A stretch of 41,770 nucleotides of DNA from a virus, in the IMG/VR virus record IMGVR_UViG_3300046485_000028, positions 1 to 41,770 of that record. The stretch is one strand, 5' to 3'. A program made the position numbers and the translations under genes. Below the pieces are notes generated by a model. That model saw only the letters and a program-made list of their open reading frames with translations, did no database searches and was not told where the DNA came from. Positions 7,496-41,770 of the stretch are shown piece by piece (the stretch's first letter is position 1; the number at the start of each line of letters is the position of its first letter).

Positions 7496-7528
7496 CCCCC
7501 TACCTGTAACGGGGTGGGGGGTCTTTTT
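7496..7528 (+). terminator. Rho-independent terminator after the capsid gene
   Basis: Stem CCCCCTACC (7496-7504) pairs with GGTGGGGGG (7513-7521), including one G:U pair. Loop is TGTAACGG, followed by TCTTTTT. Confidence 0.8.
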
Positions 7529-7551
7529 CATAATTGACTGGAGAAACTGAT

Positions 7552-7931: not shown

Positions 7932-7955
7932 CGCCTTACTTACCCCGGATGCACC

Positions 7956-8507: not shown

Positions 8508-8986
8508 TAAAGGGCGAGCTCCTAGGTGGCGAAGCGCTGGTGCAGCGCTTTGAGGGAATGGTCCCTAAGTTCACCGGGCTGATGACGCAGAGCATAGGGC
8601 GCTTGACGCTGACGCTACTGCGCAACGTGAAAGCCAACAAGTTGAGCGGGCAAGTGCTGAACGTACGTACTGGCAGGCTGCGCCGGAGCATCAACCAACG
8701 CATGGAAGGGCTGAACACCGAAAAGGTAGCCGGGTACGTGGGCACAAACGTTGTCTACGCCCGCCCGCACGAGTACGGATTTAAGGGCAACGTGCCCGTG
8801 AAGGCGCACCTACGCAACATAAAGACAGCCTTCGGCAAGAGCATATCCCCAGTGACCGTACAGGTGCAGGGCTACACCCGCAAGGTGGATACCCCAGAGA
8901 AGTCGTTCTTGCGCAGCGCATTGGCTGAGATGGACGACGCAATACGCGCTGAAATACGCGGTGCTGTAACCGAGGCAATCAAATGA
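8504..8986 (+). CDS. HK97 gp10-like head-tail joining protein
   Basis: 160 aa. GTGA overlap with the upstream gene. Motif LNVRTGRLRRSI resembles the gp10 family. Position fits the neck module. Confidence 0.55.
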   Translation: MIKGELLGGEALVQRFEGMVPKFTGLMTQSIGRLTLTLLRNVKANKLSGQVLNVRTGRLRRSINQRMEGLNTEKVAGYVGTNVVYARPHEYGFKGNVPVKAHLRNIKTAFGKSISPVTVQVQGYTRKVDTPEKSFLRSALAEMDDAIRAEIRGAVTEAIK

Positions 8987-9408
8987 TTAACCGTGAAGCC
9001 ATATTTACCGCGCTATTTGCCTTGTTGTCAACGAGCGCTGGGTACGTGACGTCATCCCGCAAGCTGCAACACTGGAATGATGTGACAAAGGACCTACAGC
9101 CTGCGCTCTTCGTTACCCAGAAGGGGCAAACAGCCGCCACTGTGAGGGGACAACCCACACGGTGGACCTTATCCGTAGACGTTTACGTGTACGCCCGCAC
9201 GGACGGGGGGTTAATCCCCGGTTCGACCCTCAACCCTTTGCTGGACGCTCTTGAGGCAGCGCTAGCACCCAATGCGATAGAAAATGCTCAGACACTCGGT
9301 GGCTTATGTGAGTGGTGTCGGATCGAAGGCGCAATCGAGACCGATGAAGGCACACTAGGCGACCAGTCGGTAGCTATCGTTCCAATCTCAATTCTCGTTT
9401 CTTCATAG
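8983..9408 (+). CDS. Hypothetical neck / tail-terminator-position protein
   Basis: 141 aa. ATGA overlap with the upstream gene. Lies between the gp10-like protein and the tail tube gene. Confidence 0.45.
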   Translation: MINREAIFTALFALLSTSAGYVTSSRKLQHWNDVTKDLQPALFVTQKGQTAATVRGQPTRWTLSVDVYVYARTDGGLIPGSTLNPLLDALEAALAPNAIENAQTLGGLCEWCRIEGAIETDEGTLGDQSVAIVPISILVSS

Positions 9409-9417
9409 GAGTTTAGT

Positions 9418-10188
9418 ATGTCTCAATATGTTTTTGGCGCGGGCACCATCTGGGCGACCCCGCTTGTTGATGCCTTTGGCAATGCGGTCACTAACGGCAC
9501 GCCCGTTCAACTGGCTATCTCGCAAGAGGTATCCATGGATGAGACGTTCGAAAGCAAGAAGCTGTATGGGCAAAACCAGTTCCCCGTGGACGTGGGTCGC
9601 GGTAAAGGCTCGGTCGCAGTTAAGTGCAAGTTCGCGCAGCTAAACGGCTTGTCCGTTAGTTCACTGTTCTACGGGCAGACGCTGTCTACCGGGCAGATTA
9701 CCTACAAGTATGACGTCACTGGGGCTGTCATTCCCGCCACACCGTTCACCATTACACCCACACCGCCCAATACAGGCACGTTCGGGCGTGACCTAGGTGT
9801 ACGTGACAGCAACGGACGCCCCATGACAAAGGTGGCAAGCGCACCAGCTACCGGGCAGTACAGCGTCGCGACTGGGGTGTACACCTTTGCCGCTGCAGAC
9901 ACGGGCAAAACGGTGTTCATCAGCTACCAGTACACAAACCTCGTTGTGAATGCGCCTACGTCTACCAAGATGACCATCCAGAACGTGCCCATGGGTGCTG
10001 CACCCGTTGTCGCGCTGGACATCTTCTTTAGCAAGAATGGCAAGGACTTCGCAACCCAGTATCCGCAGGCCATTGCCAGCAAGATGAGCTTCGCCTCGAA
10101 GCTGGATGACTACATGGTGCCGGAAATTGTGTTCGACTGCTTTGCTGACAGCGCCGGGAACGTGATGTACCGTAGCTTCTCGGAGTAA
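9418..10188 (+). CDS. Major tail (tube) protein
   Basis: 256 aa. GGAG RBS upstream. Sits directly before the G/GT chaperone pair and the tape measure gene. Confidence 0.6.
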   Translation: MSQYVFGAGTIWATPLVDAFGNAVTNGTPVQLAISQEVSMDETFESKKLYGQNQFPVDVGRGKGSVAVKCKFAQLNGLSVSSLFYGQTLSTGQITYKYDVTGAVIPATPFTITPTPPNTGTFGRDLGVRDSNGRPMTKVASAPATGQYSVATGVYTFAAADTGKTVFISYQYTNLVVNAPTSTKMTIQNVPMGAAPVVALDIFFSKNGKDFATQYPQAIASKMSFASKLDDYMVPEIVFDCFADSAGNVMYRSFSE

Positions 10189-10192
10189 CCCC

Positions 10193-10540
10193 ATGACAAC
10201 GAAGTTCAAAGGTATCTCTCTCCTACTGGGGGATAAGAACTACGTTGTCCCGCCACTGAATTTCCGCACGTTGCAGTCATTGCAATCGCGTCTGGAAACG
10301 TTCAGTGGCGGGGTGGACGCAGCATCGCTTGATCTCGTCGTGGACAGCTTACACGGGGCCATCCAGCGCAATTACCCAGAGGTCACGCGTGACGACTGCG
10401 TTGATATGCTCGACCTTGGCAACATGGAAGAAGTTATGCAGGCAGTCATGGACGTGTCTGGGCTGCGGCGTAAGGCAATGGAGGCCACTGCGCCAGCACC
10501 AGAAAACCCTTCGACTGGGCCGAGCTCTACGCCCACCTGA
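10193..10540 (+). CDS. Tail assembly chaperone (gpG-like)
   Basis: 115 aa. Canonical position between the tube and tape measure genes. A slippery heptamer lies near its 3' end. Confidence 0.7.
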   Translation: MTTKFKGISLLLGDKNYVVPPLNFRTLQSLQSRLETFSGGVDAASLDLVVDSLHGAIQRNYPEVTRDDCVDMLDLGNMEEVMQAVMDVSGLRRKAMEATAPAPENPSTGPSSTPT

Positions 10541-10755
10541 TTACGAGCCTGCATTGGACATGGGAGTACATTGACGAGTTCATGGACTTACCACGGCTGG
10601 AAGCCCTGAGCAAATACTGGGCTAAGACGCCTCCAGTGCACTTTTCCATGGCTGCGTACGTGGGCTGGGGTAAGTCGAAGGGGTCGGCCGAGGGCACTAT
10701 GCCCGATGGTGATCTAGAAGAACTGTTTAACAGAACACCCATGAAAGGGGAATAG
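10193..10755 (+). CDS. Tail assembly chaperone -1 frameshift product (gpGT-like)
   Basis: The -1 frame is open from the slip site to the TAG at 10753-10755. It encodes ...KPFDWAELYAHLITSLHWTWEYIDEFMDLPRLEALSKYWAKTPPVHF..., has no start codon of its own, and ends 2 nt before the tape measure ATG. Confidence 0.6.
10504..10510 (+). promoter_or_regulatory. -1 programmed frameshift slippery heptamer A_AAC_CCT
   Basis: X_XXY_YYZ pattern, in the correct phase with the gpG-like frame (codons GAA AAC CCT at 10502-10510). Confidence 0.55.
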
Positions 10756-10757
10756 CT

Positions 10758-13031
10758 ATGGCAGACCAAGAGACCGCAGTACGAATCACGGGGGACTCTG
10801 CGTCTGCCGTAGCTGCGATGAAAGCCGCGTCCTCGGCAGTCACCGGGGGCGTAGGCGACATGAAGAGCGCCCTAGGCACTATCGGGGATGCCTTTGGCAA
10901 GCTGAACGGGGTGTTTGCGGGGCTAGCCGCAATTGTGGGCGGCGGGGCTTTCTTTAAGGAGGCCATCGGGGAAAGTAATAAGCTCACGGGTGAGACCATG
11001 CGCCTCGCGCGTACGCTGGGCATAACCACGGAAGAGGCTAATACCCTGAACACTGCGCTCGGGGACATATACAGCGACGCCGATACGTACGTTGGCGCGT
11101 TCCAGAAGTTCACCATGCAGCTTCGCCGTAACGAAGACGGAATGAAGGCCATGGGCATACAGACCCGTGACTCAAGCGGGCACCTACGCGACGCGAATAC
11201 CGTCTTTAACGAGGCGATTGCCACGGTGGGTAAGTACAAGCCCGGGCTGGATCAGACTGCGGCTGCACAGATGCTATTCGGCAAGAGCATTGACGATGTG
11301 ATCAAGCTCCAGAAGCTGAACATGCAGGTTCTTGAAGAAGCCAAGCAGAAGAACCAAGAGCTGAACCTTGTTATCACTGATGATAACGTAGCCGCTTCCA
11401 AGGCGTACAAGGCGGCGATGAATGACGTGGGCGACGTTATGTCGGGCATCATGAAAACCGTTGGTGACGCGGTCATGCCCGTATTCACCGAACTAGCGTA
11501 CTACCTAGGCAGCACTGGACCGGGCGTTATAGCCATCTTCAAGGGTGCGCTGACTGGGCTGTTGCTGGTATTCCGCACACTGGAGATGGTCGTGAAGACC
11601 GTTATGTCTGTCGTGTTTGAGGCCATCAACCACACGGTGGACCAGCTAGGTAACTTGTCGGACATGATATCGAGCATACTGTCGGGTGACTTTGCCGGGG
11701 CAGCTAAGGCAGCGGGCAACATGAAGGACCGCTGGGTGCAGGCGTTTTCCAACATTAAGGACGCTGCCGTTGACGCATACTCTACGGCTACAAGCAAGTT
11801 CGGCAACGACTTGGAACGCACGTGGGGCGAGAAGATAGCGGCTAAGTCGCCAGTCGCCAAAGGCAAGATGCAGATGGGGGACCTGAAGCCCGCAAAGGCA
11901 GCGGTTGATAACCCCCGTATGGCTGAATGGGACGCCGAGCTCACCGCTATGAAGGTGATGTACCAGAAAGAGAACGACCTGCGTGAGATGTCCAAGGAGC
12001 AGGAGCTCAAATACTGGAAAGACCTTGCCGCGCTGCCTGACCTAAGCGCGAAGGAGAAGATAGCGCTAAAGAAGCGCATCGCAATAGAAGAGTTAGGCAT
12101 CATGAAAGCGCAGCACGAGCAGGAGCTAGCGCTAACGGAAGAGTCTATTGCCGCCATGAAGGACGCGCAGCTAGGGTTACTAGCCGCGACGCAGCAAGAG
12201 AACCAGTTTAAGCTGGATACGCTGCAGATGACGAACGCCGAGATGCTGCAATCCGAGCAGAAGCTTGAGCAAGACAGATACCGCATCATGAAGGAGGCGG
12301 TGGATGCGCGTATAGCCCTACTGAAAACAGACCCCACGAAAAACGCTGTAGCGCTTGCCAAATTGAACGATGAACTGGACGCGGTTGAGCGTGAGCACAG
12401 CCTGAAAGCCCGTGGCATTGAACTGCAAAGCCAGAAGGAGCGCCTTAAGGACTACCAGGACCTCTTCAACACCATTGGGAACACCTTTGGCAAGGCTATC
12501 AGCGGTATCATCCAAGGCACCATGACTATGGGAGCGGCTATTAAGTCTGTCTTCCAAGGAATACTAGGTGCAGTCGGGGACTACATCGGCCAGATGATAG
12601 CCAAGAAGCTAGTCGGGCTGGCTATGGACAAGGTCATCGGTATGGCACAGATTGCGACGTCCGCAGGGGTCGCAGGCGCGGGCGCAGCCGCAGCGGTGGC
12701 ACCTATCCCGATAGTAGGACCCGCGATGGCTGTAGCCGCCATGGGCACGGTGAGCTCGGCGGTTATGGGTATGGAGGCGCTGGCGTCTGCCCGGGGCGGC
12801 TACGACATCCCAGCGGGGGTAAACCCCCTGACCCAGCTACACGAGCGTGAGATGGTGTTGCCGCAGGAACAGGCCGACGCTGTGCGCAGTATGGTGGCGA
12901 ACAGTGGTACAACGGGCGCATCCGCAGGTTCTCCAATCCTAATAAGCACCACGGGCGGGCAGTTTATCCACAAAGACCAGCTCACCCAATTGCTCAAAAA
13001 GCTAAACCGTAACTTCGAGTTCGTACGATGA
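10758..13031 (+). CDS. Tail tape measure protein
   Basis: 757 aa. Long helical, Ala/Lys/Glu-rich sequence with a Gly/Ala-rich hydrophobic segment near the C-terminus. Canonical position. Confidence 0.9.
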   Translation: MADQETAVRITGDSASAVAAMKAASSAVTGGVGDMKSALGTIGDAFGKLNGVFAGLAAIVGGGAFFKEAIGESNKLTGETMRLARTLGITTEEANTLNTALGDIYSDADTYVGAFQKFTMQLRRNEDGMKAMGIQTRDSSGHLRDANTVFNEAIATVGKYKPGLDQTAAAQMLFGKSIDDVIKLQKLNMQVLEEAKQKNQELNLVITDDNVAASKAYKAAMNDVGDVMSGIMKTVGDAVMPVFTELAYYLGSTGPGVIAIFKGALTGLLLVFRTLEMVVKTVMSVVFEAINHTVDQLGNLSDMISSILSGDFAGAAKAAGNMKDRWVQAFSNIKDAAVDAYSTATSKFGNDLERTWGEKIAAKSPVAKGKMQMGDLKPAKAAVDNPRMAEWDAELTAMKVMYQKENDLREMSKEQELKYWKDLAALPDLSAKEKIALKKRIAIEELGIMKAQHEQELALTEESIAAMKDAQLGLLAATQQENQFKLDTLQMTNAEMLQSEQKLEQDRYRIMKEAVDARIALLKTDPTKNAVALAKLNDELDAVEREHSLKARGIELQSQKERLKDYQDLFNTIGNTFGKAISGIIQGTMTMGAAIKSVFQGILGAVGDYIGQMIAKKLVGLAMDKVIGMAQIATSAGVAGAGAAAAVAPIPIVGPAMAVAAMGTVSSAVMGMEALASARGGYDIPAGVNPLTQLHEREMVLPQEQADAVRSMVANSGTTGASAGSPILISTTGGQFIHKDQLTQLLKKLNRNFEFVR

Positions 13032-22954: not shown

Positions 22955-23212
22955 CTAGTCTGCGTACACGTGCACAGAGGCGGCTTTGCCCGTTATGGCC
23001 TGCACCTTGGCGGCGCGGCGCAGGGCCTCAGCGTGGGCTGCGGTAAGGTCACCATCACCCGTATGCACCAGCCGCCCGTTGATGTGCACCGTGTAGGTGT
23101 TGAGGCTGGCCATGTGGGCGTCCACGATGTGCGTGGGGCGCTTGGCCCGCTTTACCGCTGGGGTGCCCCGTAGGATAGCAATAGCGGCGTCCAGATGTTT
23201 GGTCTTGCTCAT
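22955..23212 (-). CDS. Hypothetical protein
   Basis: 85 aa. RBS AAGGAG 6 nt before the ATG. Its 5' leader (GGAGCCACACCATG) is identical to that of the upstream lipoprotein ORF. Last gene of the leftward arm. Confidence 0.55.
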   Translation of the reverse strand: MSKTKHLDAAIAILRGTPAVKRAKRPTHIVDAHMASLNTYTVHINGRLVHTGDGDLTAAHAEALRRAAKVQAITGKAASVHVYAD

Positions 23213-23223: not shown

Positions 23224-23400
23224 TTACCGTGATGGAGGGGATGGCCTGCTCGTGTGGTTGTCGGAACCACGTGCGGCGGGTGCTTGGTGTGCGGCGGGCG
23301 ATGCGTTGCTGTGACCGCCACTGATGGACAGCACGGGCGGAACCGTGGTGGCGCAGCCAGTAACAAGGGCAGCGGCAATAAGAAGGGCGAGGGATTTCAT
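23224..23400 (-). CDS. Small lipoprotein (not in the ORF track)
   Basis: 58 aa: MKSLALLIAAALVTGCATTVPPVLSISGGHSNASPAAHQAPAARGSDNHTSRPSPPSR. Signal peptide plus lipobox-like LVTG|C. AGGAG lies 7 nt upstream of the ATG at 23400. Confidence 0.6.
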   Translation of the reverse strand: MKSLALLIAAALVTGCATTVPPVLSISGGHSNASPAAHQAPAARGSDNHTSRPSPPSR

Positions 23401-23441
23401 GGTGTGGCTCCTAGTAGGGGCCGAAGCCCCCGTGGGTTGGA

Positions 23442-23846
23442 TTACAGGCCAAGGAGGGTGTTGACATCTGCGTCAGCTTGAAGCTTGGCCTTCATGCTGG
23501 TGCGGCGTTCGTTGGCGCGGCGTTCGTCGGCGCGGGCATCGGCCTTGCGAGGGGCGCGAGTCATTTCGGCCAGACTGGGCAGCTTGGCAGGCTTGCTAGC
23601 CAGCTTGCCTTCTTCGTTGATAACGGCTTTCTTGCTGGAACGGACACGAACGTACATGCGCCCTTGCACTTCCCAGCCGTGCTTTTTAGCCGTTGTTTTG
23701 CAGCACACCACGAGTTCGCCCTTGTCGTTAAGGGCAAGAACCGGGCGGCTGCGTTCGGTGGTGATGAGGTAGTCGATTGCAGCGTTTTCGTTTTTGACAA
23801 CGACTGGGGTGTTGGCGGCTGCGACTGGGGTTTTAGCGGTTGACAT
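23442..23846 (-). CDS. Hypothetical protein (basic C-terminal half)
   Basis: 134 aa. AAAGGA RBS. First gene downstream of promoter block A. Confidence 0.6.
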   Translation of the reverse strand: MSTAKTPVAAANTPVVVKNENAAIDYLITTERSRPVLALNDKGELVVCCKTTAKKHGWEVQGRMYVRVRSSKKAVINEEGKLASKPAKLPSLAEMTRAPRKADARADERRANERRTSMKAKLQADADVNTLLGL

Positions 23847-23904
23847 GATGATGGTCCTTTAAGTTACGGGTTATGGCCCTGCGTTATTGCCCGACCATAA
23901 CTGA

Positions 23905-23933
23905 ACTCTAAGGAAGCCATTTTTGGAATGCAA
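23905..23933 (-). promoter_or_regulatory. Putative sigma70-type promoter P-A (leftward): TTGCAT-17-TAGAGT
   Basis: On the minus strand, -35 TTGCAT (23933..23928), a 17-nt spacer, and -10 TAGAGT (23910..23905). Architecture and position within the conserved block match P-B. Confidence 0.4.
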
Positions 23934-23962
23934 GAACTTTCTTCACTTTTTCCAAGAATAGT
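23908..23962. repeat. Conserved promoter/operator block A (46/55 identical to 38924..38978)
   Basis: Gapless hand alignment. Contains GCAAGAAC (23930-37) and its inverse GTTCTTGC (23961-68), plus the palindrome AAGAATAGTTCTT (23954-66). A second AAGAATAGTTCT lies at 23977-88. Confidence 0.8.
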
Positions 23963-23986
23963 TCTTGCTGTCAATGAAGAATAGTT

Positions 23987-24835
23987 CTACGCACCGTTGT
24001 ACTTCTGGCGCGGCTTGCCTTCCCCCAGCCGAACGCGCTCGTACTTGTCGAACTCACAAAGGCAGTTCTGTATGTCCTGCGCACAGAACGTGTTCCAGCC
24101 CTTAGGCTCCACCCAGCGGTTGACCTCCTTGCGCAGTTCGATGAGGTGTGGGAGGAACATTTTGGCTGGCACCTTCTTGTCCTTGTCACCGTTGATAACA
24201 CGGGCAAGCCCACGGATACTCCCCGGACCGGGCGCTGCCCACGTGTACCAATCTTTCGCTGACGCTAGCACTTGCCCGGGGGTGTTCTTTACGTCCGCTA
24301 CGACCTGCGCTGCCATAAACGACCCCAGCCCGTTAGCCTGCGTCAGCCGTGTGTGGAAGCTGGCAAGCGTGTCTCCTGCGCGTGGGCGGTACAACGCACG
24401 GTTTGCCCACAGTGGGTCAAGGACATAATGCGCCAGATAGACGGGCTTGGCTAACGCGTGCCCGTTGGTAGACACGATGTACGCACTGCCGAACACCTTG
24501 CCCCCCTTGCGCATAAGCGCTTCCATGGTGTTCTTGAACACGCCCGCATCCCAGCCCCCCGGGTATAGCTGCGCCAGCGTGTCGGGGTGGTTCACTAGGC
24601 GTGCGATTGTCATGGCGAACCATGCGTCCGGGTAGTTACCCAGCTTTGAGCTCCATTCATCGCGTATCCACTGGGTAACTGTGTCCAGTTCCCGGTACAT
24701 ATTGCAGAAACGGTACGACTGCAGAATGGGGTCCTTTGTCCACGGCTTGGCCTTGCCCGCATCCCTGTTCACCCACACGTTATGTCGTGCCACCACAAAG
24801 CGCACAAAGTTCAGAGGTCCGGTAGGGTTGTTCAT
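23987..24835 (-). CDS. Putative alpha-glutamyl/putrescinyl-thymine pyrophosphorylase-like DNA base hypermodification protein (aGPT-Pplase-like)
   Basis: 282 aa from the ATG at 24835 (GTG at 24838 is also possible). N-terminal pattern FVVARHNVWVNRDAGKAKPWTKDPILQSYRFCNMYRELDTVTQWI matches my recollection of this family. It shares an operon with a TS-like hydroxymethylase and a P-loop kinase. Not verified by search. Confidence 0.6.
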   Translation of the reverse strand: MNNPTGPLNFVRFVVARHNVWVNRDAGKAKPWTKDPILQSYRFCNMYRELDTVTQWIRDEWSSKLGNYPDAWFAMTIARLVNHPDTLAQLYPGGWDAGVFKNTMEALMRKGGKVFGSAYIVSTNGHALAKPVYLAHYVLDPLWANRALYRPRAGDTLASFHTRLTQANGLGSFMAAQVVADVKNTPGQVLASAKDWYTWAAPGPGSIRGLARVINGDKDKKVPAKMFLPHLIELRKEVNRWVEPKGWNTFCAQDIQNCLCEFDKYERVRLGEGKPRQKYNGA

Positions 24836-24948
24836 CACAGTTCCTTACAAATGGAGTAGATAGCCGCTGCGACGACTACGATTGCAGCCACGGCAAACCC
24901 GAAGTCCATCAGGGCGATAGCCCAGTTTATGACGTCACTTGGTGTCAT
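24835..24948 (-). CDS. Possible 37-aa single-pass membrane peptide
   Basis: MTPSDVINWAIALMDFGFAVAAIVVVAAAIYSICKEL. Its stop overlaps the downstream ATG (TGATG) and its start overlaps the upstream gene end. Below the track cut-off. Confidence 0.3.
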   Translation of the reverse strand: MTPSDVINWAIALMDFGFAVAAIVVVAAAIYSICKEL

Positions 24949-25162
24949 GTTGTTCTCCCATCAGTGTTAGCACAATTTCGCCGAGGGGTCTGCGCACAAA
25001 CACCTTCGGCAACGGTTTCCCGGGTTTTGGCCCGGGCTTCTGCTTTGCCCGTGGCGCTGCGGCTGCGCTCTGTCGGGCAACGTGCATCGCGTAGCGTCTA
25101 TCCCACTCGCTCTGTGGGACTACATAGCGCGTGACCCCGTGGTCATCTGTCTTGGTTGACAT
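24935..25162 (-). CDS. Hypothetical protein
   Basis: 75 aa from the ATG at 25162 (the track start at 25183 is also possible). Pro/Lys-rich centre. Lies within the overlapping operon. Confidence 0.45.
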   Translation of the reverse strand: MSTKTDDHGVTRYVVPQSEWDRRYAMHVARQSAAAAPRAKQKPGPKPGKPLPKVFVRRPLGEIVLTLMGEQHDTK

Positions 25163-25589
25163 AGCCTGCCCCGGGTGTGGCACCGTTGTCGGGATACACG
25201 TGCTGCACCATCATTGACAACAGATGCACCACGTAGATGAGCATATCTGGCGTTGACCAGTTGATCGTGATGTACAGCACGTCCCGCTCGGCTTCGGTTA
25301 GACCGTTGTATAGCGCGAACTCTGCCACGGTGGACAGCGTCAGGCACGTGCTTTGCGGGCGCTTGCCAGCCTGCGCCAACTCCTTCAACTTGGTGGCGAA
25401 GTGTATGGCCTTGAGAACGTCCTGCTTGCCGTTCTTCTTACGGTGACGTGTGACGTACTTTGTGATCTGCCCTTCAAAGTATCCAAGTTCGCACTCGGCT
25501 GCGAGGTCCCAGTGCTGGAGTGACTTTGCGTTGGGGTCGCTGTTCTTGTAGTGGGTGCCCCCCACTTGCATCTCGTTAGCGGTTTTCAT
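25143..25589 (-). CDS. DUF3310-like protein (possible nucleotide pyrophosphohydrolase role)
   Basis: 148 aa. Pattern GGTHYKN...WDLAAECELGYFEGQITKYVTRHRKKNGKQDVLKAIHF resembles DUF3310. ATGA overlap with the HD gene. Confidence 0.5.
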   Translation of the reverse strand: MKTANEMQVGGTHYKNSDPNAKSLQHWDLAAECELGYFEGQITKYVTRHRKKNGKQDVLKAIHFATKLKELAQAGKRPQSTCLTLSTVAEFALYNGLTEAERDVLYITINWSTPDMLIYVVHLLSMMVQHVYPDNGATPGAGYVNQDR

Positions 25590-26140
25590 GCACGGTTCTC
25601 TCTTTCTTTAAGGGGTCTGACGACGACGGTTATATTCAAGCTGAGCACATCCTGCACCACCTCGTTCGTGAGCACTTGCACGGCTAACGGTAGCCCCTCA
25701 CGCGGGGTTTCCAGTATCCACATGAGGCCTTTCGCCACTGTCTCACGGAGGTAGGTGTTACCCATACGGACTTCTTCCAGGCACCACAGCACCAGCTCCA
25801 TACGGTCCGCCCACTTTAACAACCGTTCCTCCATGGGGGTTAGTCCACAGTCCCGGAACAGTGGTGCCAGCCCAGACTCAATGTCATCCATCAGTGGCCC
25901 GAGCGCATCGTGCATCTTCTTTATGGGCGCAGGGATGTCTCCCGTGATAAGCTCGGGCAAATCATGGTGCATTGCCGCCACGAATACCGCCTTACGCGCA
26001 TCCGGGGCCACTTGGTTCAACAGCAACATGATGCCGAAGCTATGCGCCCCAATGGACTGCGAACGGTGCACGCGCTTGGTGTGGTAACGCACCACGTCAG
26101 CGGCTTCGCGGTACAGGTTGGCTTCAGTAAGTACGTTCAC
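25586..26140 (-). CDS. HD-domain phosphohydrolase (YfbR-like 5'-deoxynucleotidase)
   Basis: 184 aa from the GTG at 26140. GGGAGG RBS and GTGA overlap with the TS-like stop. Motifs HSFGIMLL and AAMHHDLPELITGDIP form the H...HD...D set. Confidence 0.75.
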   Translation of the reverse strand: MNVLTEANLYREAADVVRYHTKRVHRSQSIGAHSFGIMLLLNQVAPDARKAVFVAAMHHDLPELITGDIPAPIKKMHDALGPLMDDIESGLAPLFRDCGLTPMEERLLKWADRMELVLWCLEEVRMGNTYLRETVAKGLMWILETPREGLPLAVQVLTNEVVQDVLSLNITVVVRPLKERENRA

Positions 26141-27246
26141 AGAGCACCTCCCTTGGTGATGTCGTGTGCAGCGAGCACCATGGCCTCCAGCGAACCATCG
26201 TGTGCGTGCGCCCTGCGGTTCAGCCAGTCGAAGCACGCCAAGCGCCAGTCGGACGCTTCGATAAGGCGTGCCATCTCCAGCGCCCGTATGTAGTCCTTAT
26301 CGCGGAAGGACGCGTACGCATACAGCATGGGTGACACCACGAGGCGAAAGTAGTACGACTCACCCACCTCGGCAAGATCGCGCAGGCCAGCACCGCGCTC
26401 GGCCTCGTAGTTGAGGGCCATGCAGTCTTTCCGGAACAGTGCTGCGCCAGCCGGGTCCGTTGCCAGCTTATAGGGCGCGACTTCACCGCAGGCGTATATG
26501 TCAACGACTTCACCGTGGTCGTGATTGCCGTTTAGGAACTCCCCCCAAAACGGGTTCGTCGGGTAGACGTGCAGATTGTTTGAGTGCTGCGTGTAGTAAC
26601 CCACGGGCACGCCTACGCTGATAGCCACCCACTCCTGGATCATGCTGAACTGCACTGCGTTGGCACCGTACGCGCCCCAGATAGCGTCGTTGCTGCGGTT
26701 GATAACCTGCATGTTCAACGCCCCGTTGGATATCTCGAACATGATCATGTCGTTGCACGGAACGTCCTTCGTACTAGCGCCTAGGTCCATCTCGGGGTTC
26801 CATATAGACAGCACACACTGACGCGTGTCGGGCTTGCGGCGCAACAGGTTAACAGCGGCTTCAAGCTGGTCAAACCCGAACGCGTGGGATAGGCGATGCC
26901 CGTATGCACCGTGGAACGTGGCTCCGTTGTCACTGAACTGCGCAAGGCTAGGCAGCATCAGGCATGGTAGGTTCACCGTGTTGCTGCCAGCCAAAATCCA
27001 CAGCGACTCTATCAGGTGGAAGAACGGGTTGGCGTCACGCACCGAGTCAAACAACACGCGCTCTTGCGGTGCGCTGTACATCGTAGCCACGGGTCCAACG
27101 ACGCGGATGGTTTCAACGCCACGGCTTGATGACTTTACACCGTGCCAGTTAATCATACTGAGCGCCACGGGTAGCGCCTCATTGACGTTACGCACGGATA
27201 CGACAGCGCCATATTGCGCTCGGGTGTCTCTGAACGGGTTTTCCAT
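26137..27246 (-). CDS. Thymidylate synthase-like pyrimidine hydroxymethylase (predicted dUMP hydroxymethylase)
   Basis: 369 aa. ThyA-type motifs: RDANPFFHLIESLWILAG, HGAYGHRL, DTRQCVLSIWNP, catalytic VPCND, NRSNDAIWGAYGANAVQF and NLHVY. It has about 100 extra C-terminal residues compared with ThyA. Confidence 0.75.
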   Translation of the reverse strand: MENPFRDTRAQYGAVVSVRNVNEALPVALSMINWHGVKSSSRGVETIRVVGPVATMYSAPQERVLFDSVRDANPFFHLIESLWILAGSNTVNLPCLMLPSLAQFSDNGATFHGAYGHRLSHAFGFDQLEAAVNLLRRKPDTRQCVLSIWNPEMDLGASTKDVPCNDMIMFEISNGALNMQVINRSNDAIWGAYGANAVQFSMIQEWVAISVGVPVGYYTQHSNNLHVYPTNPFWGEFLNGNHDHGEVVDIYACGEVAPYKLATDPAGAALFRKDCMALNYEAERGAGLRDLAEVGESYYFRLVVSPMLYAYASFRDKDYIRALEMARLIEASDWRLACFDWLNRRAHAHDGSLEAMVLAAHDITKGGAL

Positions 27247-27254
27247 GGGGGTTC

Positions 27255-27845
27255 CTAAAGGATATCTTCAACGCTAGGCAAAGGGAGGCCTAGTAACTCC
27301 AGCGACAGGCTGTACGCATGATCGTAGTCTAACCTGAATACTTCCAACCCAACGGCTTCTAGTCGGTCCCCCCAGCGGAGGGCGCTGCGGTGCTTGTCGT
27401 GCAGCTTTTCAGGTGTGTATGGCTTGGTGTTGCCCTTGCGGGCGCGTCGGGTAAGCACGTTTGCAATGCACACATCGGGCGGGGTGTTAAGCACCACAAA
27501 CACGGCGCGGTCAAAGTGACTCGCTAGCGTCTGGCACGTTTCAACGCCCGGGGTGATAAGTCCTTCGGCGAATACGCTGGCGTCCCCCCGGTTGGCTAGG
27601 CTTATCCACGCCAGCACCTGATGGATGTGTGCGTATGGGCTAAACCCGTCTACGCCCCCGCAGGCGCGGACGTAGGCACCTAGGAGCACCACCTCTCGGG
27701 GCGTCACGCTGTAGCCCGCCTTGCCCTGTTTTCCCGAGTGGGTGGGCACGTACGCGGTAAGCCCCCCAGCCGCTGTCAGCACCGCACGCGCCAGCGTCGA
27801 CTTCCCGCTGCCGTTGGTGCCGTGTACGTAGATAAGCGTCTTCAT
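27255..27845 (-). CDS. P-loop kinase (candidate 5-hydroxymethyluracil DNA kinase; a dNMP kinase is the alternative)
   Basis: 196 aa. Walker A YVHGTNGSGKST. About 200-aa kinase fold size. Lies immediately upstream of the TS-like gene. Confidence 0.65.
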   Translation of the reverse strand: MKTLIYVHGTNGSGKSTLARAVLTAAGGLTAYVPTHSGKQGKAGYSVTPREVVLLGAYVRACGGVDGFSPYAHIHQVLAWISLANRGDASVFAEGLITPGVETCQTLASHFDRAVFVVLNTPPDVCIANVLTRRARKGNTKPYTPEKLHDKHRSALRWGDRLEAVGLEVFRLDYDHAYSLSLELLGLPLPSVEDIL

Positions 27846-28438
27846 ATTAAGTCCTTAGATATAGCGTTCAGATACGCTCGATGCCACGTTGCGGTAGAAC
27901 CCACTTCGTCAAGCACGGGGCCACCCGCACGATGCGCGACGCATTGGTGGAAGTAGTCCCCCACGGTGAACGAGTCATACCCGTTGGCGCACAGCGCTGC
28001 ACCTAGCGGGGCGTTGAGCGTGCGAAGCGATTGTAGCGCCTTTACTTGGTAAGCCGCTACCAGTGGTATCGTCGGGGAAAGCATGGCCCCGTGACTGGGG
28101 TGCCGGGTAGCCCACGCGGTCGGGGGAACGTACACGTGCCCGAAGCGGCGGCACAGCCGTTCCAGGTACAGCCACATCCCGTGCATGTCGTGCTCTGTGC
28201 TGGGGTGCAGGGTCTGGTAAGCGTGCGGCCGACGGTATAGGTTAACGTCTGACACCATGACCGCCACGGTGCGGCACCCTTCATCGATGGCGTGCTGCAA
28301 CGCCACGCCCCGGGCACCGACCCAGTCCTTACCCTCCACTTTGACGGTGCGCTGGTATTCGGAAGGGGCGCTGGGCTGGGTAACGATACTTTCACCGGGT
28401 ACGCGCAGCACGTATACGGGCATCTTCGGGTTCATCAT
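27842..28438 (-). CDS. Hypothetical protein, first gene of the modification operon
   Basis: 198 aa from the ATG at 28438, with AAGGAGG 4 nt upstream. ATGA overlap with the kinase gene. His-rich patch HPSTEHDMHGMW. I recognise no family. Confidence 0.6.
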   Translation of the reverse strand: MMNPKMPVYVLRVPGESIVTQPSAPSEYQRTVKVEGKDWVGARGVALQHAIDEGCRTVAVMVSDVNLYRRPHAYQTLHPSTEHDMHGMWLYLERLCRRFGHVYVPPTAWATRHPSHGAMLSPTIPLVAAYQVKALQSLRTLNAPLGAALCANGYDSFTVGDYFHQCVAHRAGGPVLDEVGSTATWHRAYLNAISKDLI

Positions 28439-28455
28439 ATTGCCTCCTTGTTGGG

Positions 28456-29868
28456 TCAAGCCAAGATATCTTTAACGTCACGGTAGTCACGCAGCATTTT
28501 AATCATGCGGCGTTCATTAGCGTGGCGGGTGTGTTGGGTGGCTAGCATCACTTCATCCACGGTGTCGCGTGCGAGTATGTACTTGTAGTTCACATGGTCG
28601 CGCAGCCCCACCTGACGCGCTGCCCCCATGCGCTCCTTCACCTGCGCGTACGCCTCACGCCCCCATAGCATACTGAAGAAGATAAGCGTGTTGCCCCCGC
28701 CTTGCAAGTTCAGCCCGTGGCCCCCGCCCTGCGGGTGTATCAGCAAGACCGGGTGCTTGCCCGCGTTCCACGAGTCCTGCAGGGCGTTCAACTGCTTTGC
28801 GTTCTTGCAGTCAGCGACGCATGGTGCCTTCGGGTACAGACTGCGCAACCGTGCAAGGTCTGGCTTGAACCAGTACGCGATCATGATGTTGCCCGCTGTG
28901 AACTCCACCACCTCTTGCAGCGCCTCCAGCTTGGCGTCGTGCACTGCCTGCCATGTACGGGCACCCGTAGCCGTTTCAAGGAACAGCGCCCCGTTAGCCA
29001 TCTGCCAGCACTTGGACGACAAGCTAGCCGCGCTGAGCGCCTCGGTGCTGCCAGACTCCAGCTCCAGGAACATTTCCTTCTCCAGCGTGGCGTACATCTT
29101 ACGGGCGGCGGGCGGCAAGTCTACCCATATGTTCTGTTCTATAACGGGCGGCAAGTCAAGCCAGTCTTCGGCACGCATGGACAGTATCAGCGGGCTAATT
29201 AGCTGCATGATTTTGCCCTCGGCGTCCTCATCCGGGGTGTATCCGTAACCCATGTACCCGCTAGGGCTGAAGAAGCGGCTGCGATAACGCGCTACCTGTT
29301 CCCCTAGGCGCTGACCTTTATCTAGGATGAATATCTGGGACCACAAATCCAGCAACCCTTTCGGCGCGGGGGTTCCGGTCAGTATGACCCTACGCTTGAA
29401 CCGATGTACGTGGTGGCGCAGCGTGCCGAAGCGCTTGCTACCGGGTGTCTTGAACATGGACGACTCGTCGATAACGAGCATATCGTAAGGCCAGCCGTTC
29501 TTACGTATCCTGCTTTTCAGGGTGTACAACAACCATCGCAGGTTATCCACGTTGATGATGTGTATTTGCGCTTTGCTGTTAAGCGCCAGCAACCGCTGAC
29601 GCTCGTCACCCGTTAGCAGCTTGAACGTCAGGTGCTTGGTATGGCCCCACTTGCGGGCTTCCTGCCTCCACACGCCCTGCGCAGGGCGCAGCGGTGCCAC
29701 TAGCAACACCCGGTTGATTTCGCCACGGTGCAGCATGTCACTGACAGCGGTGAGCGTGGATATGGTCTTGCCCAGCCCCATGTCCAGGAACAGCCCCGCA
29801 TGATCTTGCTGTTTTAAGAACCCCACGGCGCGGCGCTGGTACTCACGCAGGTCACTTCGTTGCAGCAT
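28456..29868 (-). CDS. SNF2/DEAD-like family helicase
   Basis: 470 aa. Motif I DMGLGKT, motif II LVIDESS, and C-terminal helicase motifs (GGHGLNLQ, GRAARQVG-like). Confidence 0.9.
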   Translation of the reverse strand: MLQRSDLREYQRRAVGFLKQQDHAGLFLDMGLGKTISTLTAVSDMLHRGEINRVLLVAPLRPAQGVWRQEARKWGHTKHLTFKLLTGDERQRLLALNSKAQIHIINVDNLRWLLYTLKSRIRKNGWPYDMLVIDESSMFKTPGSKRFGTLRHHVHRFKRRVILTGTPAPKGLLDLWSQIFILDKGQRLGEQVARYRSRFFSPSGYMGYGYTPDEDAEGKIMQLISPLILSMRAEDWLDLPPVIEQNIWVDLPPAARKMYATLEKEMFLELESGSTEALSAASLSSKCWQMANGALFLETATGARTWQAVHDAKLEALQEVVEFTAGNIMIAYWFKPDLARLRSLYPKAPCVADCKNAKQLNALQDSWNAGKHPVLLIHPQGGGHGLNLQGGGNTLIFFSMLWGREAYAQVKERMGAARQVGLRDHVNYKYILARDTVDEVMLATQHTRHANERRMIKMLRDYRDVKDILA

Positions 29869-30076
29869 TGAGCCTCCGGAGAGCGCTGATGGCAGAAAAG
29901 AGGTCCGGGTGGCGTTCCACCTGCTTTAAGTACTCGCGCCAGCCTATCTGCTTGGGCATCATGACATCGTACTTACCCAGCTTCACGCGGTGCTCCACAG
30001 AGCCGTTCAGCGGGTACATCTTAAGGGCGTAAGGCATACCCGTTCCCGTGCCCCCGCGCCAGCGTGCCCAACTCAT
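29852..30076 (-). CDS. Hypothetical protein
   Basis: 74 aa from the ATG at 30076 (ATGA overlap with the upstream stop). Overlaps the SNF2 start by 17 nt. Confidence 0.45.
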   Translation of the reverse strand: MSWARWRGGTGTGMPYALKMYPLNGSVEHRVKLGKYDVMMPKQIGWREYLKQVERHPDLFSAISALRRLNAATK

Positions 30077-30273: not shown

Positions 30274-30580
30274 AGTTACTCGTTCCATAATGTTCCTTTA
30301 AGAGTTTATCAATTGCATCTTTAGTATGGCACACAAACACCCGGAAACCCAGATCACGCAGCTTTTTATGAATGCGTAATTGCAATGGCTCAAACTGCCC
30401 ACCGTGGGGGCGCTTAAGCTCGAAGAAGTACAGCACGCCCCCGGGCAGCAACACCAAACGGTCAGGCCAGCCCCGCAGGAAGCGCAGCTTAAACACCAGC
30501 CCCCGCAGGGCTTTCACTTCCTGCATAAGGTGGCGCTCAATGACGTCTTCCGTTACTAGTCTTTCTTGTAGCGGTCGCAT
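30266..30580 (-). CDS. VRR-NUC domain nuclease
   Basis: 104 aa from the ATG at 30580. Motif GWPDRLVLLPGGVLYFFELKRPHGG..PLQ is typical of VRR-NUC. Confidence 0.75.
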   Translation of the reverse strand: MRPLQERLVTEDVIERHLMQEVKALRGLVFKLRFLRGWPDRLVLLPGGVLYFFELKRPHGGQFEPLQLRIHKKLRDLGFRVFVCHTKDAIDKLLKEHYGTSNYA

Positions 30581-32550
30581 ACAAAGCCCTTCGCAGCTAA
30601 AGGCATCCCCGCCATCCAAGCACGGGGCGCGCACACTATTTTCTCCAGCGCTTTGATGTTGCTGGTGCCCACTGGACGCAGCGTAAGCGCCTCGTCATGC
30701 ACGGTGCCGACCACCTCGTACCCGTTGGTCTCGGCGCTGTACATGCCCTCCATCATGATATCCCGCGCTATGGCCTGCACAATGTTCTCTATCAGCTTGC
30801 CGCCATAGGTGCCCTCACGCAGGAGTTTGCCGTGGTAGTCCGTCTTAAAGGACAGCGCCCATGAGGGCTTCCCGAAGCGCTCGGACGGGATAGCCGCTGC
30901 GTACGGGTAGCGCAGTTCACGCCCACTTGGAAGCTGGATGCACAGCCAATGGTCGCGCATGTAAAAGCGACACGACAGCCCCTCATACACCTTGCCCGGG
31001 TGCGTAACCGCAGCCACCCACAGCGCTTCCACCTTTTTCCACGATGCCACGATAGCCGGGTGTTCTTTACGATAGGTCTTAACTGCCTTCAGTGCAAAGT
31101 CCACTTCGATGATGCACCCAGCGTTCGCAGCGTACTCAACAAACCGTGGTCCGCCTAACGCGTACCCGCAGCCCAGCACCAGATTCTTAGCGATGCGGCG
31201 TTGTTCGTCCGTTACGTCATCGATGCTGTCCAGCATCCACAGCTTCTTCGCCATGAGTTTGTAGACGTCCACTCCAGCGAAGTACGCCTTGAGCATATGC
31301 TCTTCGCCTGCCACCCATGCCAGCACACGGGCTTCAATAGCGGTGTAGTCAACCACGGCGAGTTCGTAGCCGTTGGGGGCGCGTATAAAGCCCCTCATGC
31401 ACTGGCTGATGGTGTCAATGGGCTTCTCGTACCACATCTGGAACATATCGGCCACGTCCACGACGCCAAACTCGTCCCCGACAAGGTCCAACAGCGCAAA
31501 CACCGCCTCACGTTGCCTGCCCTTCAAGTGCCCCCGGATAAAGTTATGCGGCTGCACCAGCCGCCCCGCGTACCGTCCAGTATGGGCACCGTGGAATAGA
31601 AACCCGCCCTGCACCACGTGGTCGTCAGGGTCGGCGCACAGCATCATAGACACTAGCTTCTTGGTGGACGCCTTGCCCGCCTCTATGCGCAGTTCCAACA
31701 GCCTGCGCGTGTCGGCGTCTAGGTGCTCACCCTTAAGCGCCTCTTCGATGGTGCCCTTCTGCATGTTTTCGATATCCAGACCGCGCTCGGCGAATATCTG
31801 CAACATCTTGGCGACCTGCGTGGCCTTTACGCCCCCTGTCATGGCCTGCACTTCAACGGCTACGCGGCGCTCAAGCTCCTGCACCACGGCAAGGGCTTTG
31901 CGCACCAGTGGGATATCTATTGGCAGACCACGGTCATTCATACGCATATCCAGCCGGAACATCATCCGTTCGCGGCTGGTAAGTTCGGGCAGCACGCTGT
32001 CCAAGTACGCCTCACCCATGACGTCGTCGTGGCAGTACAGGCTAAACCGCTCGAAGTCCTCGGGCGCATCCTCGGGCAGGATACGGGTACGGGCGTCCTT
32101 CTTGGTGGGCTTGCGTGGTTTGCAGAACATCGCGATGAGCCGCTTGCCCTCCTCGTTCTTTTTAACGGGGGCGTCAATGGCCTTTAGCGCGTGGTCCAAG
32201 CTACGGGGTAAGCCCGAAGCCGCTGCACGGGCTGCGGTGCACGACCATTGCTTGTCCGCCACGGCTGGGATGCTGGGATGCTGCCTGCGGAGCGCGTACT
32301 GCCACACGAGGCGCTCAAAGGACGCGTTATGGGCCACAAACACCCCGCCCGAGGCTACCCATGAGACGAGATCCTTTGGTGGTCGCTGCGATCGTGGTAG
32401 CCACTCGCGCGTCGTGACCATACCGGGCAGCATGTACCGGGCTATGAGGACCTCGGTGCTGGGGTGCCGTGCGTAACGGTGCCCGCCCACCTTGCGAATG
32501 TCGAGCTGGCTAAACGTTTCAAAGTCCAAATGCGCTGCATCGGAGGTCAT
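30556..32550 (-). CDS. Family A DNA polymerase with 3'-5' exonuclease domain
   Basis: 664 aa. Exo I LDFETFS, motif A VVDYTAIEARVLAW, motif B RRIAKNLVLGCGYALG, motif C GTVHDEA. Confidence 0.95.
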   Translation of the reverse strand: MTSDAAHLDFETFSQLDIRKVGGHRYARHPSTEVLIARYMLPGMVTTREWLPRSQRPPKDLVSWVASGGVFVAHNASFERLVWQYALRRQHPSIPAVADKQWSCTAARAAASGLPRSLDHALKAIDAPVKKNEEGKRLIAMFCKPRKPTKKDARTRILPEDAPEDFERFSLYCHDDVMGEAYLDSVLPELTSRERMMFRLDMRMNDRGLPIDIPLVRKALAVVQELERRVAVEVQAMTGGVKATQVAKMLQIFAERGLDIENMQKGTIEEALKGEHLDADTRRLLELRIEAGKASTKKLVSMMLCADPDDHVVQGGFLFHGAHTGRYAGRLVQPHNFIRGHLKGRQREAVFALLDLVGDEFGVVDVADMFQMWYEKPIDTISQCMRGFIRAPNGYELAVVDYTAIEARVLAWVAGEEHMLKAYFAGVDVYKLMAKKLWMLDSIDDVTDEQRRIAKNLVLGCGYALGGPRFVEYAANAGCIIEVDFALKAVKTYRKEHPAIVASWKKVEALWVAAVTHPGKVYEGLSCRFYMRDHWLCIQLPSGRELRYPYAAAIPSERFGKPSWALSFKTDYHGKLLREGTYGGKLIENIVQAIARDIMMEGMYSAETNGYEVVGTVHDEALTLRPVGTSNIKALEKIVCAPRAWMAGMPLAAKGFVCDRYKKD

Positions 32551-32619: not shown

Positions 32620-33042
32620 TTACGCAGCGGCGGCGGGGCTAACGGTCATGCCGAGGGCACGGCTGGACGCCAGTTCCAGATCGATGGTGCCAGCGCGTGA
32701 CATGCTGTACAGCACTTGGCGCAGCTTGCGGGTTGGGATTTCCAGCTTCTCTGCCAGCGCCTTCGAGTTCCAAGGCTTCTTGACCAACTGCTTGATGCGT
32801 TTCGCGAGGGCTTCCCGTTCGCCCTCTTCGAACACCACGGGTTCCTTGACACGGGGTGCCTTAGCTTCAGCGGCTGGCTTGGCTGCGGCTTTCTTGGCTG
32901 GCGCTGGTGCAGCCACTTCCTTCGCAGCGGCTTTCTTAGCTGCGGGTGCGGCTGGCGCTGCAACCTTCTTTGCAGCGGTTTTCTTAGCTGCGGGTTTGGT
33001 GTCGGTGCCCAACAGGTCTTCGACGTCGTTTGCTTTGCTCAT
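32620..33042 (-). CDS. Histone H1-like Ala/Lys/Pro-repeat protein with a C-terminal winged-helix-like domain
   Basis: 140 aa. Three 16-aa AAKK/PAAP repeats, seen as a 48-bp DNA period (units at 32924-32946 and 32972-32994). C-terminal KALAEKLEIPTRKLRQVLYSMSRAGTIDLE. Confidence 0.65.
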   Translation of the reverse strand: MSKANDVEDLLGTDTKPAAKKTAAKKVAAPAAPAAKKAAAKEVAAPAPAKKAAAKPAAEAKAPRVKEPVVFEEGEREALAKRIKQLVKKPWNSKALAEKLEIPTRKLRQVLYSMSRAGTIDLELASSRALGMTVSPAAAA

Positions 33043-41643: not shown

Positions 41644-41770
41644 TCCAGTGTGGTTCCGGAACCGCTCAGTTGTGTGTGTGGTTCCAGTACACCCCCTTTA
41701 TGGGGTACTGGCACCACTCAACATATTCCCAAAATAGAAGTGGAACCACTCGAAGAAGTACGTGCTGGTC
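41644..41770. repeat. Terminal exact direct repeat, copy 2 (identical to 1..127)
   Basis: Same comparison as copy 1; the window ends exactly at the end of the repeat. Confidence 0.97.

Follow-up and report, generated by a model that had tools for sequence, protein, structure and literature searches.

A predicted thymidine modification operon with a 5-hmdU DNA kinase, a PF18723 protein and no ADDT in a complete siphovirus-like phage genome

Introduction

Thymidine hypermodification gene clusters have been described in the Pseudomonas phages M6 and PaMx11 (Lee et al., 2018, 2021; PMC5889632, PMC8989533). The original prediction of these pathways is that of Iyer et al. (2013), as cited in PMC8989533. 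In M6, 5-hydroxymethyl-deoxyuridine (5-hmdU) in DNA is phosphorylated by gp54 to the monophosphate, 5-phosphomethyl-deoxyuridine (5-PmdU) (PMC8989533). The nucleophile transferase of M6, PaMx11, ViI, PhiW-14 and Acinetobacter phage 15599 belongs to clade 2 of the alpha-glutamyl/putrescinyl thymine pyrophosphorylases (aGPT-Pplases) (PMC8989533; PMC11472151; PMC13458397). This clade, PF18724, is now called ADDT (also AADT or DADT), and its members include M6 gp51, ViI gp247, PhiW-14 gp109 and PaMx11 gp46. We describe here a related operon, located on the minus strand from position 28438 to position 23987 of the IMG/VR virus record IMGVR_UViG_3300046485_000028. The whole stretch analysed, positions 1 to 41,770 of that record, is referred to as the window.

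Thymidine hypermodifications shield phage DNA from restriction enzymes, and the enzymes that make them serve as DNA-labelling tools. In every pathway solved in the papers considered here, the group transfer is carried out by ADDT. In the window and its relatives the hydroxymethylase and the kinase are kept, and ADDT is swapped for a PF18723 protein and a GT-A-like family.

Proposed modification pathway

We give a probability of about 0.55 to the reading that the locus is the modification operon of a complete siphovirus-like phage and that it specifies the following pathway. By homology, a thymidylate synthase (TS)-fold enzyme would hydroxymethylate dUMP to 5-hmdUMP before replication, an HD nucleotidase would cut the competing dT nucleotide pool, a DUF3310 protein would phosphorylate 5-hmdUMP and the phage's own family A DNA polymerase would put 5-hmdU into DNA. 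After replication, a P-loop kinase homologous to M6 gp54 would convert a subset of the 5-hmdU to 5-PmdU. ADDT being absent, the PF18723 protein would be the only candidate consumer of 5-PmdU. Its invariant Cys260 may attack C6, and the phosphate would be expelled to give thymine or an adduct. The product of orf198 would be a second candidate tailoring enzyme and may glycosylate the non-phosphorylated 5-hmdU.

An initial annotation of the DNA had proposed that the phage makes 5-hmdU DNA and decorates it. The first part was borne out by homology for the genes of synthesis and phosphorylation; the decorating transferase, ADDT, was not found. Because a clade 1 protein and orf198 are present in place of ADDT, the final base of the virion DNA cannot be predicted from sequence.

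Organization of the operon

The genome is about 41.6 kb long and is closed by an exact direct repeat of 127 nt (window 1-127 = 41644-41770). Because of this terminal overlap it was considered complete, either circularly closed or with terminal repeats. Eight tightly packed open reading frames (ORFs) were read directly from the minus strand between 28438 and 23987. They continue a longer leftward replication module that includes genes for a family A DNA polymerase and an SNF2-family helicase. The stop of the helicase gene at 28456 is followed by 17 nt containing an AAGGAGG ribosome-binding site, and then by the start of orf198 (27842..28438, 198 aa). This gene shares an ATGA overlap with the kinase gene (27255..27845, 196 aa), which is separated by an 8-nt gap from the gene of the TS-like protein (26137..27246, 369 aa). 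A GTGA overlap links the latter to the gene of the HD phosphohydrolase (25586..26140, 184 aa). For this HD gene, a start at the upstream GTG 26236 was dropped in favour of GTG 26140, on the basis of the GTGA overlap and of the alignment to gp17 of Rhodoferax phage P26218. The HD gene and the DUF3310 gene (25143..25589, 148 aa) share an ATGA overlap. The DUF3310 gene then overlaps orf75 (24935..25162) by 20 nt and orf75 overlaps orf37 (24835..24948), which encodes a hydrophobic product of 37 aa, by 14 nt. At a TGATG/GTGA junction, orf37 meets the gene of the 282-aa PF18723 protein, which starts at ATG 24835 or GTG 24838 and ends at 23987. Packing this tight is usual in phage operons and is not remarkable by itself. 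Promoter and terminator scans of the operon gave no signal above that of shuffled sequence, and megablast of window 23400-30000 against the phage collection gave no match.

The layout of eight overlapping ORFs, as first annotated, was confirmed when the ORFs and their junctions were reread, and all the domain calls were reproduced by hidden Markov model (HMM) searches (Pfam, PHROGs). Six of the genes are robust: orf198 and those of the kinase, the TS-like protein, the HD protein, the DUF3310 protein and the 282-aa protein. The other two, orf75 and orf37, are not supported: none of 43 related loci has a homolog of either, and both are absent in the nearest relatives, in which the DUF3310 and PF18723 genes lie about 5 nt apart. 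Neither has a Pfam match, and their coding status is unproven. Compared with the closest relatives, this genome has an insert of about 300 nt between the genes for DUF3310 and PF18723 (window 24835-25162). This insert holds the two overlapping orphan ORFs, one proline/lysine-rich and the other, of 37 aa, hydrophobic.

The 5-hmdU DNA kinase

The protein encoded at 27255..27845 is a predicted 5-hmdU DNA kinase (5-HMUDK). It carries the Walker A motif GTNGSGKST, passes the cut-off of PF18748 HMUDK_HMUD1 (30.5 bits for a cut-off of 27, E 3e-7) and matches phrog_800 (E 1.5e-19). It is 57% identical to gp15 of the Rhodoferax phage, and tblastn also links it to M6 gp54, whose activity was validated biochemically (24% identity over 172 aa, E 3e-7). 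In at least 30 loci, its orthologs are flanked by ADDT and hydroxymethylase genes. The kinase had first been taken to pyrophosphorylate 5-hmdU. This was not retained, since such kinases yield the monophosphate 5-PmdU (PMC8989533).

5-hmdU DNA kinases are labelled 'terminase small subunit' in NC_007809 (M6 gp54), in NC_029061 (gp15) and in phrog_800. This label is a mis-annotation that is spreading to relatives.

Genes for precursor synthesis

The TS-like protein matched PF00303 (E 8e-17) over profile positions 13-212 of 266 only, and phrog_5131 with E 2e-110. Its best sequence match in the PDB was the CMP 5-hydroxymethylase MilA (E 1e-20), against about 5e-11 for true TS. At the base-specifying position, Asn is found in the window protein and Asp in MilA. 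The residues R21, E58, Y94, R126, C146, R166, S167, D169, N177, H207 and Y209 of Escherichia coli ThyA are retained; among them are the catalytic Cys146, the phosphate-binding arginines and the uracil-specifying Asn177. W80, W83, H147, R127 and the C-terminal lid are lost, and in place of the last 55 residues of TS there is an extension of about 140 aa with no relation to them. W80 and the C-terminus of TS matter for hydride transfer. The protein is 41% identical to M6 gp58 and 57% identical to gp16 of the Rhodoferax phage. This residue pattern fits a predicted dUMP hydroxymethylase rather than a thymidylate synthase and, together with the similarity to MilA, it supports the function first proposed for this TS homolog.

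The HD protein is a YfbR-like 5'-deoxynucleotidase (PF12917, E 2.5e-14) that also matches PF13023, phrog_6047, phrog_7076 and phrog_318. It is 57% identical to gp17 of the Rhodoferax phage. We infer that it would deplete dT (or dU) nucleotides. The DUF3310 protein scores exactly at the cut-off of PF11753 (24.0 bits), and it matches phrog_5839 (E 2e-31) and phrog_236, labelled 'nucleotide kinase' (E 2e-13). It is 39% identical to M6 gp61. From its PHROG relatives, which are labelled nucleotide or dNMP kinases, we infer that it would act as a 5-hmdUMP kinase.

The same genes could be read as ordinary nucleotide metabolism without DNA modification, the TS-like protein being a plain thymidylate synthase and the others a nucleotide kinase and an HD hydrolase. 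Such a reading would agree with the GenBank labels of the homologs ('thymidylate synthase', 'terminase small subunit') and with a Pfam score of the kinase near the cut-off. It is very improbable. The TS-like protein is devoid of the TS-specific residues and C-terminal lid and has more in common with a hydroxymethylase, the kinase is a homolog of the validated M6 gp54 with ADDT as its neighbour in relatives, and the PF18723 family is specific to modification clusters.

Search for ADDT and other tailoring enzymes

An HMM built from six ADDTs was run with the --max option against the six-frame translation of the closed genome, and the best match had an E value of 3.1. No match was obtained in the window by tblastn with M6 gp51 and gp14 of the Rhodoferax phage. 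In Rhodoferax phage P26218, ADDT (gp14, PF18724 E 6e-48) occupies the slot of orf198. Domain searches of the operon and the replication module revealed no pyridoxal phosphate (PLP)-dependent or radical S-adenosylmethionine (SAM) tailoring enzyme, as the initial annotation had noted, and no flavin adenine dinucleotide (FAD) or acetyltransferase domain.

The PF18723 protein

The 282-aa protein (23987..24835) had been expected to match the aGPT-Pplases. It did so with high significance, the matching family being clade 1 (PF18723, now named HMUDK_hel in Pfam). The score was 136.6 bits for a cut-off of 25 (E 1.4e-39), over profile positions 7-278 of 281; as a control, M6 gp55 scored 189.9 bits. No other Pfam family was found even at E values up to 10. 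The protein is 36% identical to M6 gp55 and has more than 4,275 homologs, with PF18723 in all 120 among the matches listed. In JGI and GenBank the family is still called 'alpha-glutamyl/putrescinyl thymine pyrophosphorylase clade 1'.

An AlphaFold2 (AF2) model of the protein is all-alpha, with a predicted local distance difference test score (pLDDT) of 94.5. Foldseek of this model against the PDB gave no significant match. The best ones were helix-hairpin-helix (HhH) DNA glycosylases, with E 0.5-2 and a template modelling (TM) score of about 0.3. A phmmer search against the PDB sequences gave noise only (E about 0.5).

Across 38 homologs 41 columns are invariant, all of them necessarily present in the window protein. 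Among them are C44, N45, R48, E49, D51, K130, Q177, D181, K183 and the motif GPGSxRG, and in the C-terminal part Q253, D254, Q256, N257, C258, C260, E261 and K264. There are thus three invariant cysteines (C44, C258, C260) and a dense set of invariant polar residues. This residue pattern suggests an enzyme, probably Cys-dependent, that would act on (phospho-)hmU in DNA.

In PaMx11 gp46, the catalytic motif of ADDT is E-T-x-x-C (E243, T244, C247), and E243 and T244 are metal ligands (PMC11472151). The sole local profile match between PF18723 and ADDT aligned AQDIQNCLCEFDK with LQEAETVCCVFKQ. In this match, which is suggestive although not significant, C260 falls on the catalytic Cys and Q256/N257 fall on the metal ligands E243/T244 of PaMx11 gp46. 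The PF18723 motif QNCLCEF resembles ETxxC in this non-significant alignment only.

The 282-aa protein had initially been considered a nucleophile transferase displacing the (pyro)phosphate, with a simple or a new adduct as product. The genome is complete and retains the kinase, and no Pplase-family protein other than this one is encoded in it; the invariant Cys/Gln/Asn motif of PF18723 is also reminiscent of the active site of ADDT. In SP10, where the kinase is fused to clade 1 and a second Pplase paralog was not detected, the modified base is alpha-glutamylthymidine (PMC5889632). Against this, M6 gp55 is not needed for glycine transfer (PMC8989533), no activity of clade 1 is reported in the literature on these pathways, PF18723 occurs mostly in loci without any kinase, and neither structure nor profile comparison linked it significantly to ADDT. 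The demonstrated transferase belongs to clade 2 (PF18724), not to clade 1. The transferase function is doubtful for this protein.

The orf198 protein

The 198-aa protein (27842..28438) had been described as unknown. It does lack a family match, with no hit in Pfam or PHROGs and no Pfam match for any of 40 family members. It is not featureless, since its model has a GT-A fold. Only 16 homologs were found in 5.8 billion proteins. An exhaustive profile search of 1.84 billion proteins gave 41 cluster representatives, none outside its own family, and tblastn against 50,697 phage records gave no match. The homologs are all stand-alone proteins of about 150-215 aa, and the gene is always located in relatives between those of the SNF2 helicase and of ADDT or the kinase. 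orf198 is the founding member of a small, previously unannotated family. A relation to Nmad5 (M6 gp56) was looked for by comparison, and none was found.

The AF2 model, built from 16 sequences, has a pLDDT of 78 and a predicted TM score of 0.78. Foldseek against the PDB gave STIV A197 glycosyltransferase as the top match (E 2e-4), followed by LARGE1, RmlT and other GT-A proteins (TM about 0.5). In the BFVD set of predicted viral structures, the matches were TET-associated glycosyltransferase (TAGT)-domain proteins, phiRSL1 glycosyltransferases and the T-even beta-glucosyl-HMC-alpha-glucosyltransferase (E 1.7e-8 to 1e-5, TM 0.53-0.64). Because this predicted TAGT-like fold resembles that of DNA glycosyltransferases, orf198 was retained as a candidate tailoring enzyme: it is a candidate DNA glycosyltransferase or a candidate nucleotide-sugar-binding accessory protein. 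Searches with jackhmmer from the PhiJL001 TAGT never reached orf198, and hhalign gave a probability of 1.2%. D161 is the only nearly invariant acidic residue of the family.

Distribution of the genes in related loci

Two sets of loci were compared. The first was anchored by a kinase alignment and comprised 35 IMG/VR loci, further contigs and the phage record; with a single kinase sequence no related locus was retrieved, so that the alignment was required. The order helicase, orf198 and/or ADDT, kinase, TS, HD, DUF3310 was the same in Rhodoferax phage P26218 and 43 metagenomic loci. In all kinase-anchored loci the kinase-TS-HD-DUF3310 block after the helicase is constant, and orf198, ADDT and PF18723 vary independently. 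ADDT alone was found in about 17 loci, including the Rhodoferax phage, and orf198 with ADDT in about nine. The combination orf198 and PF18723 without ADDT was present in the window, in L004/5, L008, L011 and L041 and in truncated contigs. All three genes were found in L010 and L033, and ADDT with PF18723, as in M6, in L043-45.

The second set was anchored by PF18723 and consisted of the best 80 of 503 IMG/VR loci, plus M6 (81 loci); neighbours were searched for within 10 kb. A TS-like gene was near PF18723 in 67 of the 81 loci, the kinase in 26, ADDT in nine and orf198 in three. Neither kinase nor ADDT was near in 55 of 81, most of which had no P-loop ORF nearby. The PF18723 gene is usually directly upstream of those of the TS-like hydroxymethylase, HD and DUF3310 proteins (L046-L124, e.g. 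L050, L115, L100). A true TAGT gene adjoins PF18723 in 20 kinase-less loci and never occurs with the kinase in this sample. In other kinase-less loci, a radical SAM/SPASM enzyme (about five) or a 318-aa protein without assignment is encoded upstream of PF18723. The kinase with PF18723 and without ADDT was found in at least five complete relatives and in 15 of the 81 loci. A constant pairing of orf198 with PF18723 in ADDT-less loci was ruled out, as 15 loci have the kinase and PF18723 without orf198 or ADDT.

These data show that PF18723 follows the hydroxymethylase, and not the kinase or ADDT. Since it is linked mainly to the hydroxymethylase, often without any kinase, its role as a 'pyrophosphorylase' is doubtful. 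As it also pairs with TAGT or radical SAM enzymes, both this name and that of 'kinase helical domain' may mislead.

A non-catalytic or accessory function was also considered, in which PF18723 would recognize 5-hmdU and flip the base for the modifying enzyme at hand (kinase, TAGT or radical SAM enzyme), the product in this phage being 5-PmdU and/or a sugar adduct. The present Pfam name designates the family as the helical domain of the kinase, the two are fused in SP10, the weak best fold matches are HhH DNA glycosylases and the partners of PF18723 are mutually exclusive (kinase in 26 loci, TAGT in 20, radical SAM/SPASM in about five). Such a function is nevertheless unlikely: the kinases are active in vitro without PF18723, the many invariant polar and Cys residues resemble those of an active site, and 5-PmdU is not reported as a final virion base in the literature on these phages.

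Another function would be the return of residual (phospho-)5-hmdU to thymine, in which case the virion DNA would contain thymine and the product of orf198, such as a glycosylated 5-hmdU, or thymine alone. The virions of PhiW-14, SP10, ViI and M6 are without 5-hmdU, which is converted to the hypermodified base or to thymine (PMC8989533). A clade 1 protein is encoded by all four (PMC5889632), and the thymine-forming enzyme is not identified in the literature on these phages. Such chemistry is accessible, because M6 gp51 with borohydride gives thymine via an exocyclic methylene (PMC8989533), and the three invariant cysteines of PF18723 could supply the reducing equivalents. This argument is purely correlative, and PF18723 has no cofactor-binding domain. 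In addition, many loci contain PF18723 with the hydroxymethylase, HD and DUF3310 genes and no other modifier nearby, and full reversion to thymine would be futile there. We consider this function rather improbable.

Evaluation of the proposed pathway

Several observations weigh against the pathway proposed above, in which PF18723 consumes 5-PmdU and orf198 is a second tailoring enzyme. For the kinase, the Pfam score is just above the cut-off, and the SP10 kinase is active without its fused clade 1 (PF18723) domain (PMC8989533). For PF18723, no clade 1 activity is reported in the literature on these pathways, and M6 gp55 could be omitted from the in vitro reconstitution (PMC8989533). Comparison of its model with a characterized Pplase had been advised; Foldseek did not retrieve the ADDT structure 8Z2M, and the hhalign comparison with ADDT was not significant (probability 0.12%). 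Because 55 of the 81 loci have no kinase within 10 kb, PF18723 is not generally dependent on 5-PmdU. For orf198, there is no sequence-level link to TAGT or other glycosyltransferase families (including PF20691) and no conserved DXD, the DDD of the PhiJL001 TAGT being weakly aligned with the non-conserved V62-S63-D64. The glycosyltransferase reading of orf198 is for these two reasons a structural lead and not a family membership. Finally, no dCMP deaminase was found among the replication-module ORFs scanned.

A more specific form of the pathway combines two proposals: orf198 would be a DXD-less GT-A glycosyltransferase, forming a base-J-like adduct, and PF18723 a Cys-dependent resolver of phosphorylated 5-hmdU, with thymine or a new adduct as product. 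Taken jointly, they have a rather low probability. If true, they would amount to an undescribed chemistry of thymidine modification and would give a family with over 4,000 members its first function.

Neighbouring genes and virion module

The SNF2-family helicase gene (28456..29868, minus strand) lies immediately upstream of the operon (PF00176, E 9e-25; 72% identity to gp13 of the Rhodoferax phage). The family A polymerase that had been reported for this phage is present on the same strand at 30556..32550 (PF00476; 68% identity to gp11 of the Rhodoferax phage). Also in the replication module, a 140-aa protein (window 32620-33042) matches DUF6465 and, weakly, the histone H1-like HC2. Downstream of the operon, two small genes at 23442-23846 (134 aa) and 22955-23212 (85 aa) are kept in nearly all related loci and are homologs of gp19 and gp20 of the Rhodoferax phage. 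The 134-aa protein has no Pfam or PHROG match.

The siphovirus character assigned to the phage was upheld by its structural genes (Terminase_3, a portal-MuF fusion, Phage-tail_3/Rcc01698). A 1359-aa protein is Phage-tail_3/Rcc01698 (Rcc01698_C), and a 757-aa ORF at the tape-measure position has no Pfam match. The 727-aa ORF at window 2243-4426 fuses a portal protein with a Mu F-like head-morphogenesis domain. Two long ORFs of the plus strand (window 4431-5816 and 5599-7479) overlap by about 218 nt. The first, of 461 aa, weakly matches the prohead protease S78, and no Pfam family matched its 626-aa partner. The pair may represent a protease/scaffold/capsid arrangement or a frameshift. The genome is mosaic, with a replication and modification module collinear with that of Rhodoferax phage P26218 (30266-41436) and a siphovirus/gene transfer agent (GTA)-like virion part (1-22834). 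In the virion and lysis part, matches to Rhodoferax phage P26218 are limited to the endolysin and a single small protein encoded next to the terminase.

Comparison with known systems

The assignment of the operon to thymidine-replacement or modification modules of the M6/PaMx11/PhiW-14 type, made at first annotation, is sustained by homologs of five M6 genes: gp54, gp55, gp58, gp59 (HD) and gp61 (E 3e-7 to 2e-72). As in M6, a family A polymerase gene is nearby. Unlike M6, the window has no ADDT (gp51), no Nmad5 (gp56), no PLP, radical SAM, FAD or acetyltransferase enzymes and, among the replication-module ORFs scanned, no dCMP deaminase. Its genes are also ordered differently, the clade 1 gene coming after that of DUF3310, and orf198 is additional.

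Among cultured phages, the nearest relative for the replication and modification module is Rhodoferax phage P26218 (NC_029061), which is collinear with the window from PolA to DUF3310 (41-72% amino-acid identity). It differs by the presence of ADDT (gp14) in place of orf198 and by the absence of PF18723. Its structural module is annotated as podovirus-type, whereas that of the window is siphovirus-like.

Like the window, Bacillus phage SP10 associates kinase and clade 1, and no other Pplase paralog was detected in it (PMC5889632). The two are fused in gp186 of SP10 and separate in the window. A radical SAM enzyme and another kinase are further encoded by SP10, and its base is alpha-glutamylthymidine.

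A cultured phage with a PF18723 cassette is the Alphaproteobacteria phage PhiJL001 (AY576273, L126; positions 6986-11828). It encodes PF18723 (gp19), TAGT (gp22), Nmad5 (gp23), an SPO1-like hydroxymethylase (gp24), HD (gp25) and DUF3310 (gp26) proteins, then PolA, with neither kinase nor ADDT. In the same phage, gp16 is dATP/dGTP diphosphohydrolase-like (PF18909). PhiJL001 and 20 IMG/VR loci share with the window PF18723, a GT-A glycosyltransferase and the genes of 5-hmdU synthesis, without ADDT. Theirs is a bona fide TAGT (PF20691, E 3e-53) and they have no kinase, whereas the window has the kinase and a TAGT-like fold only, with no sequence match and no conserved DXD. PhiJL001 is a tractable system for the question of glycosylated 5-hmU in phages.

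In the base J pathway of kinetoplastids, thymine is modified by a JBP hydroxylase and the glucosyltransferase JGT, which is in the TAGT family. The window would be analogous only if orf198 glycosylates 5-hmU in DNA. Here, 5-hmU would arise before replication by a TS-like enzyme and not by a dioxygenase, and orf198 is not a TAGT by sequence.

Loci of this type constitute a natural experiment on the function of PF18723 (more than 4,275 proteins, 503 IMG/VR loci) and on the enzyme that turns leftover 5-hmdU to thymine. The window is a system of a known kind in an unusual variant, in which ADDT is missing, PF18723 accompanies the kinase and a new GT-A-like family is present.

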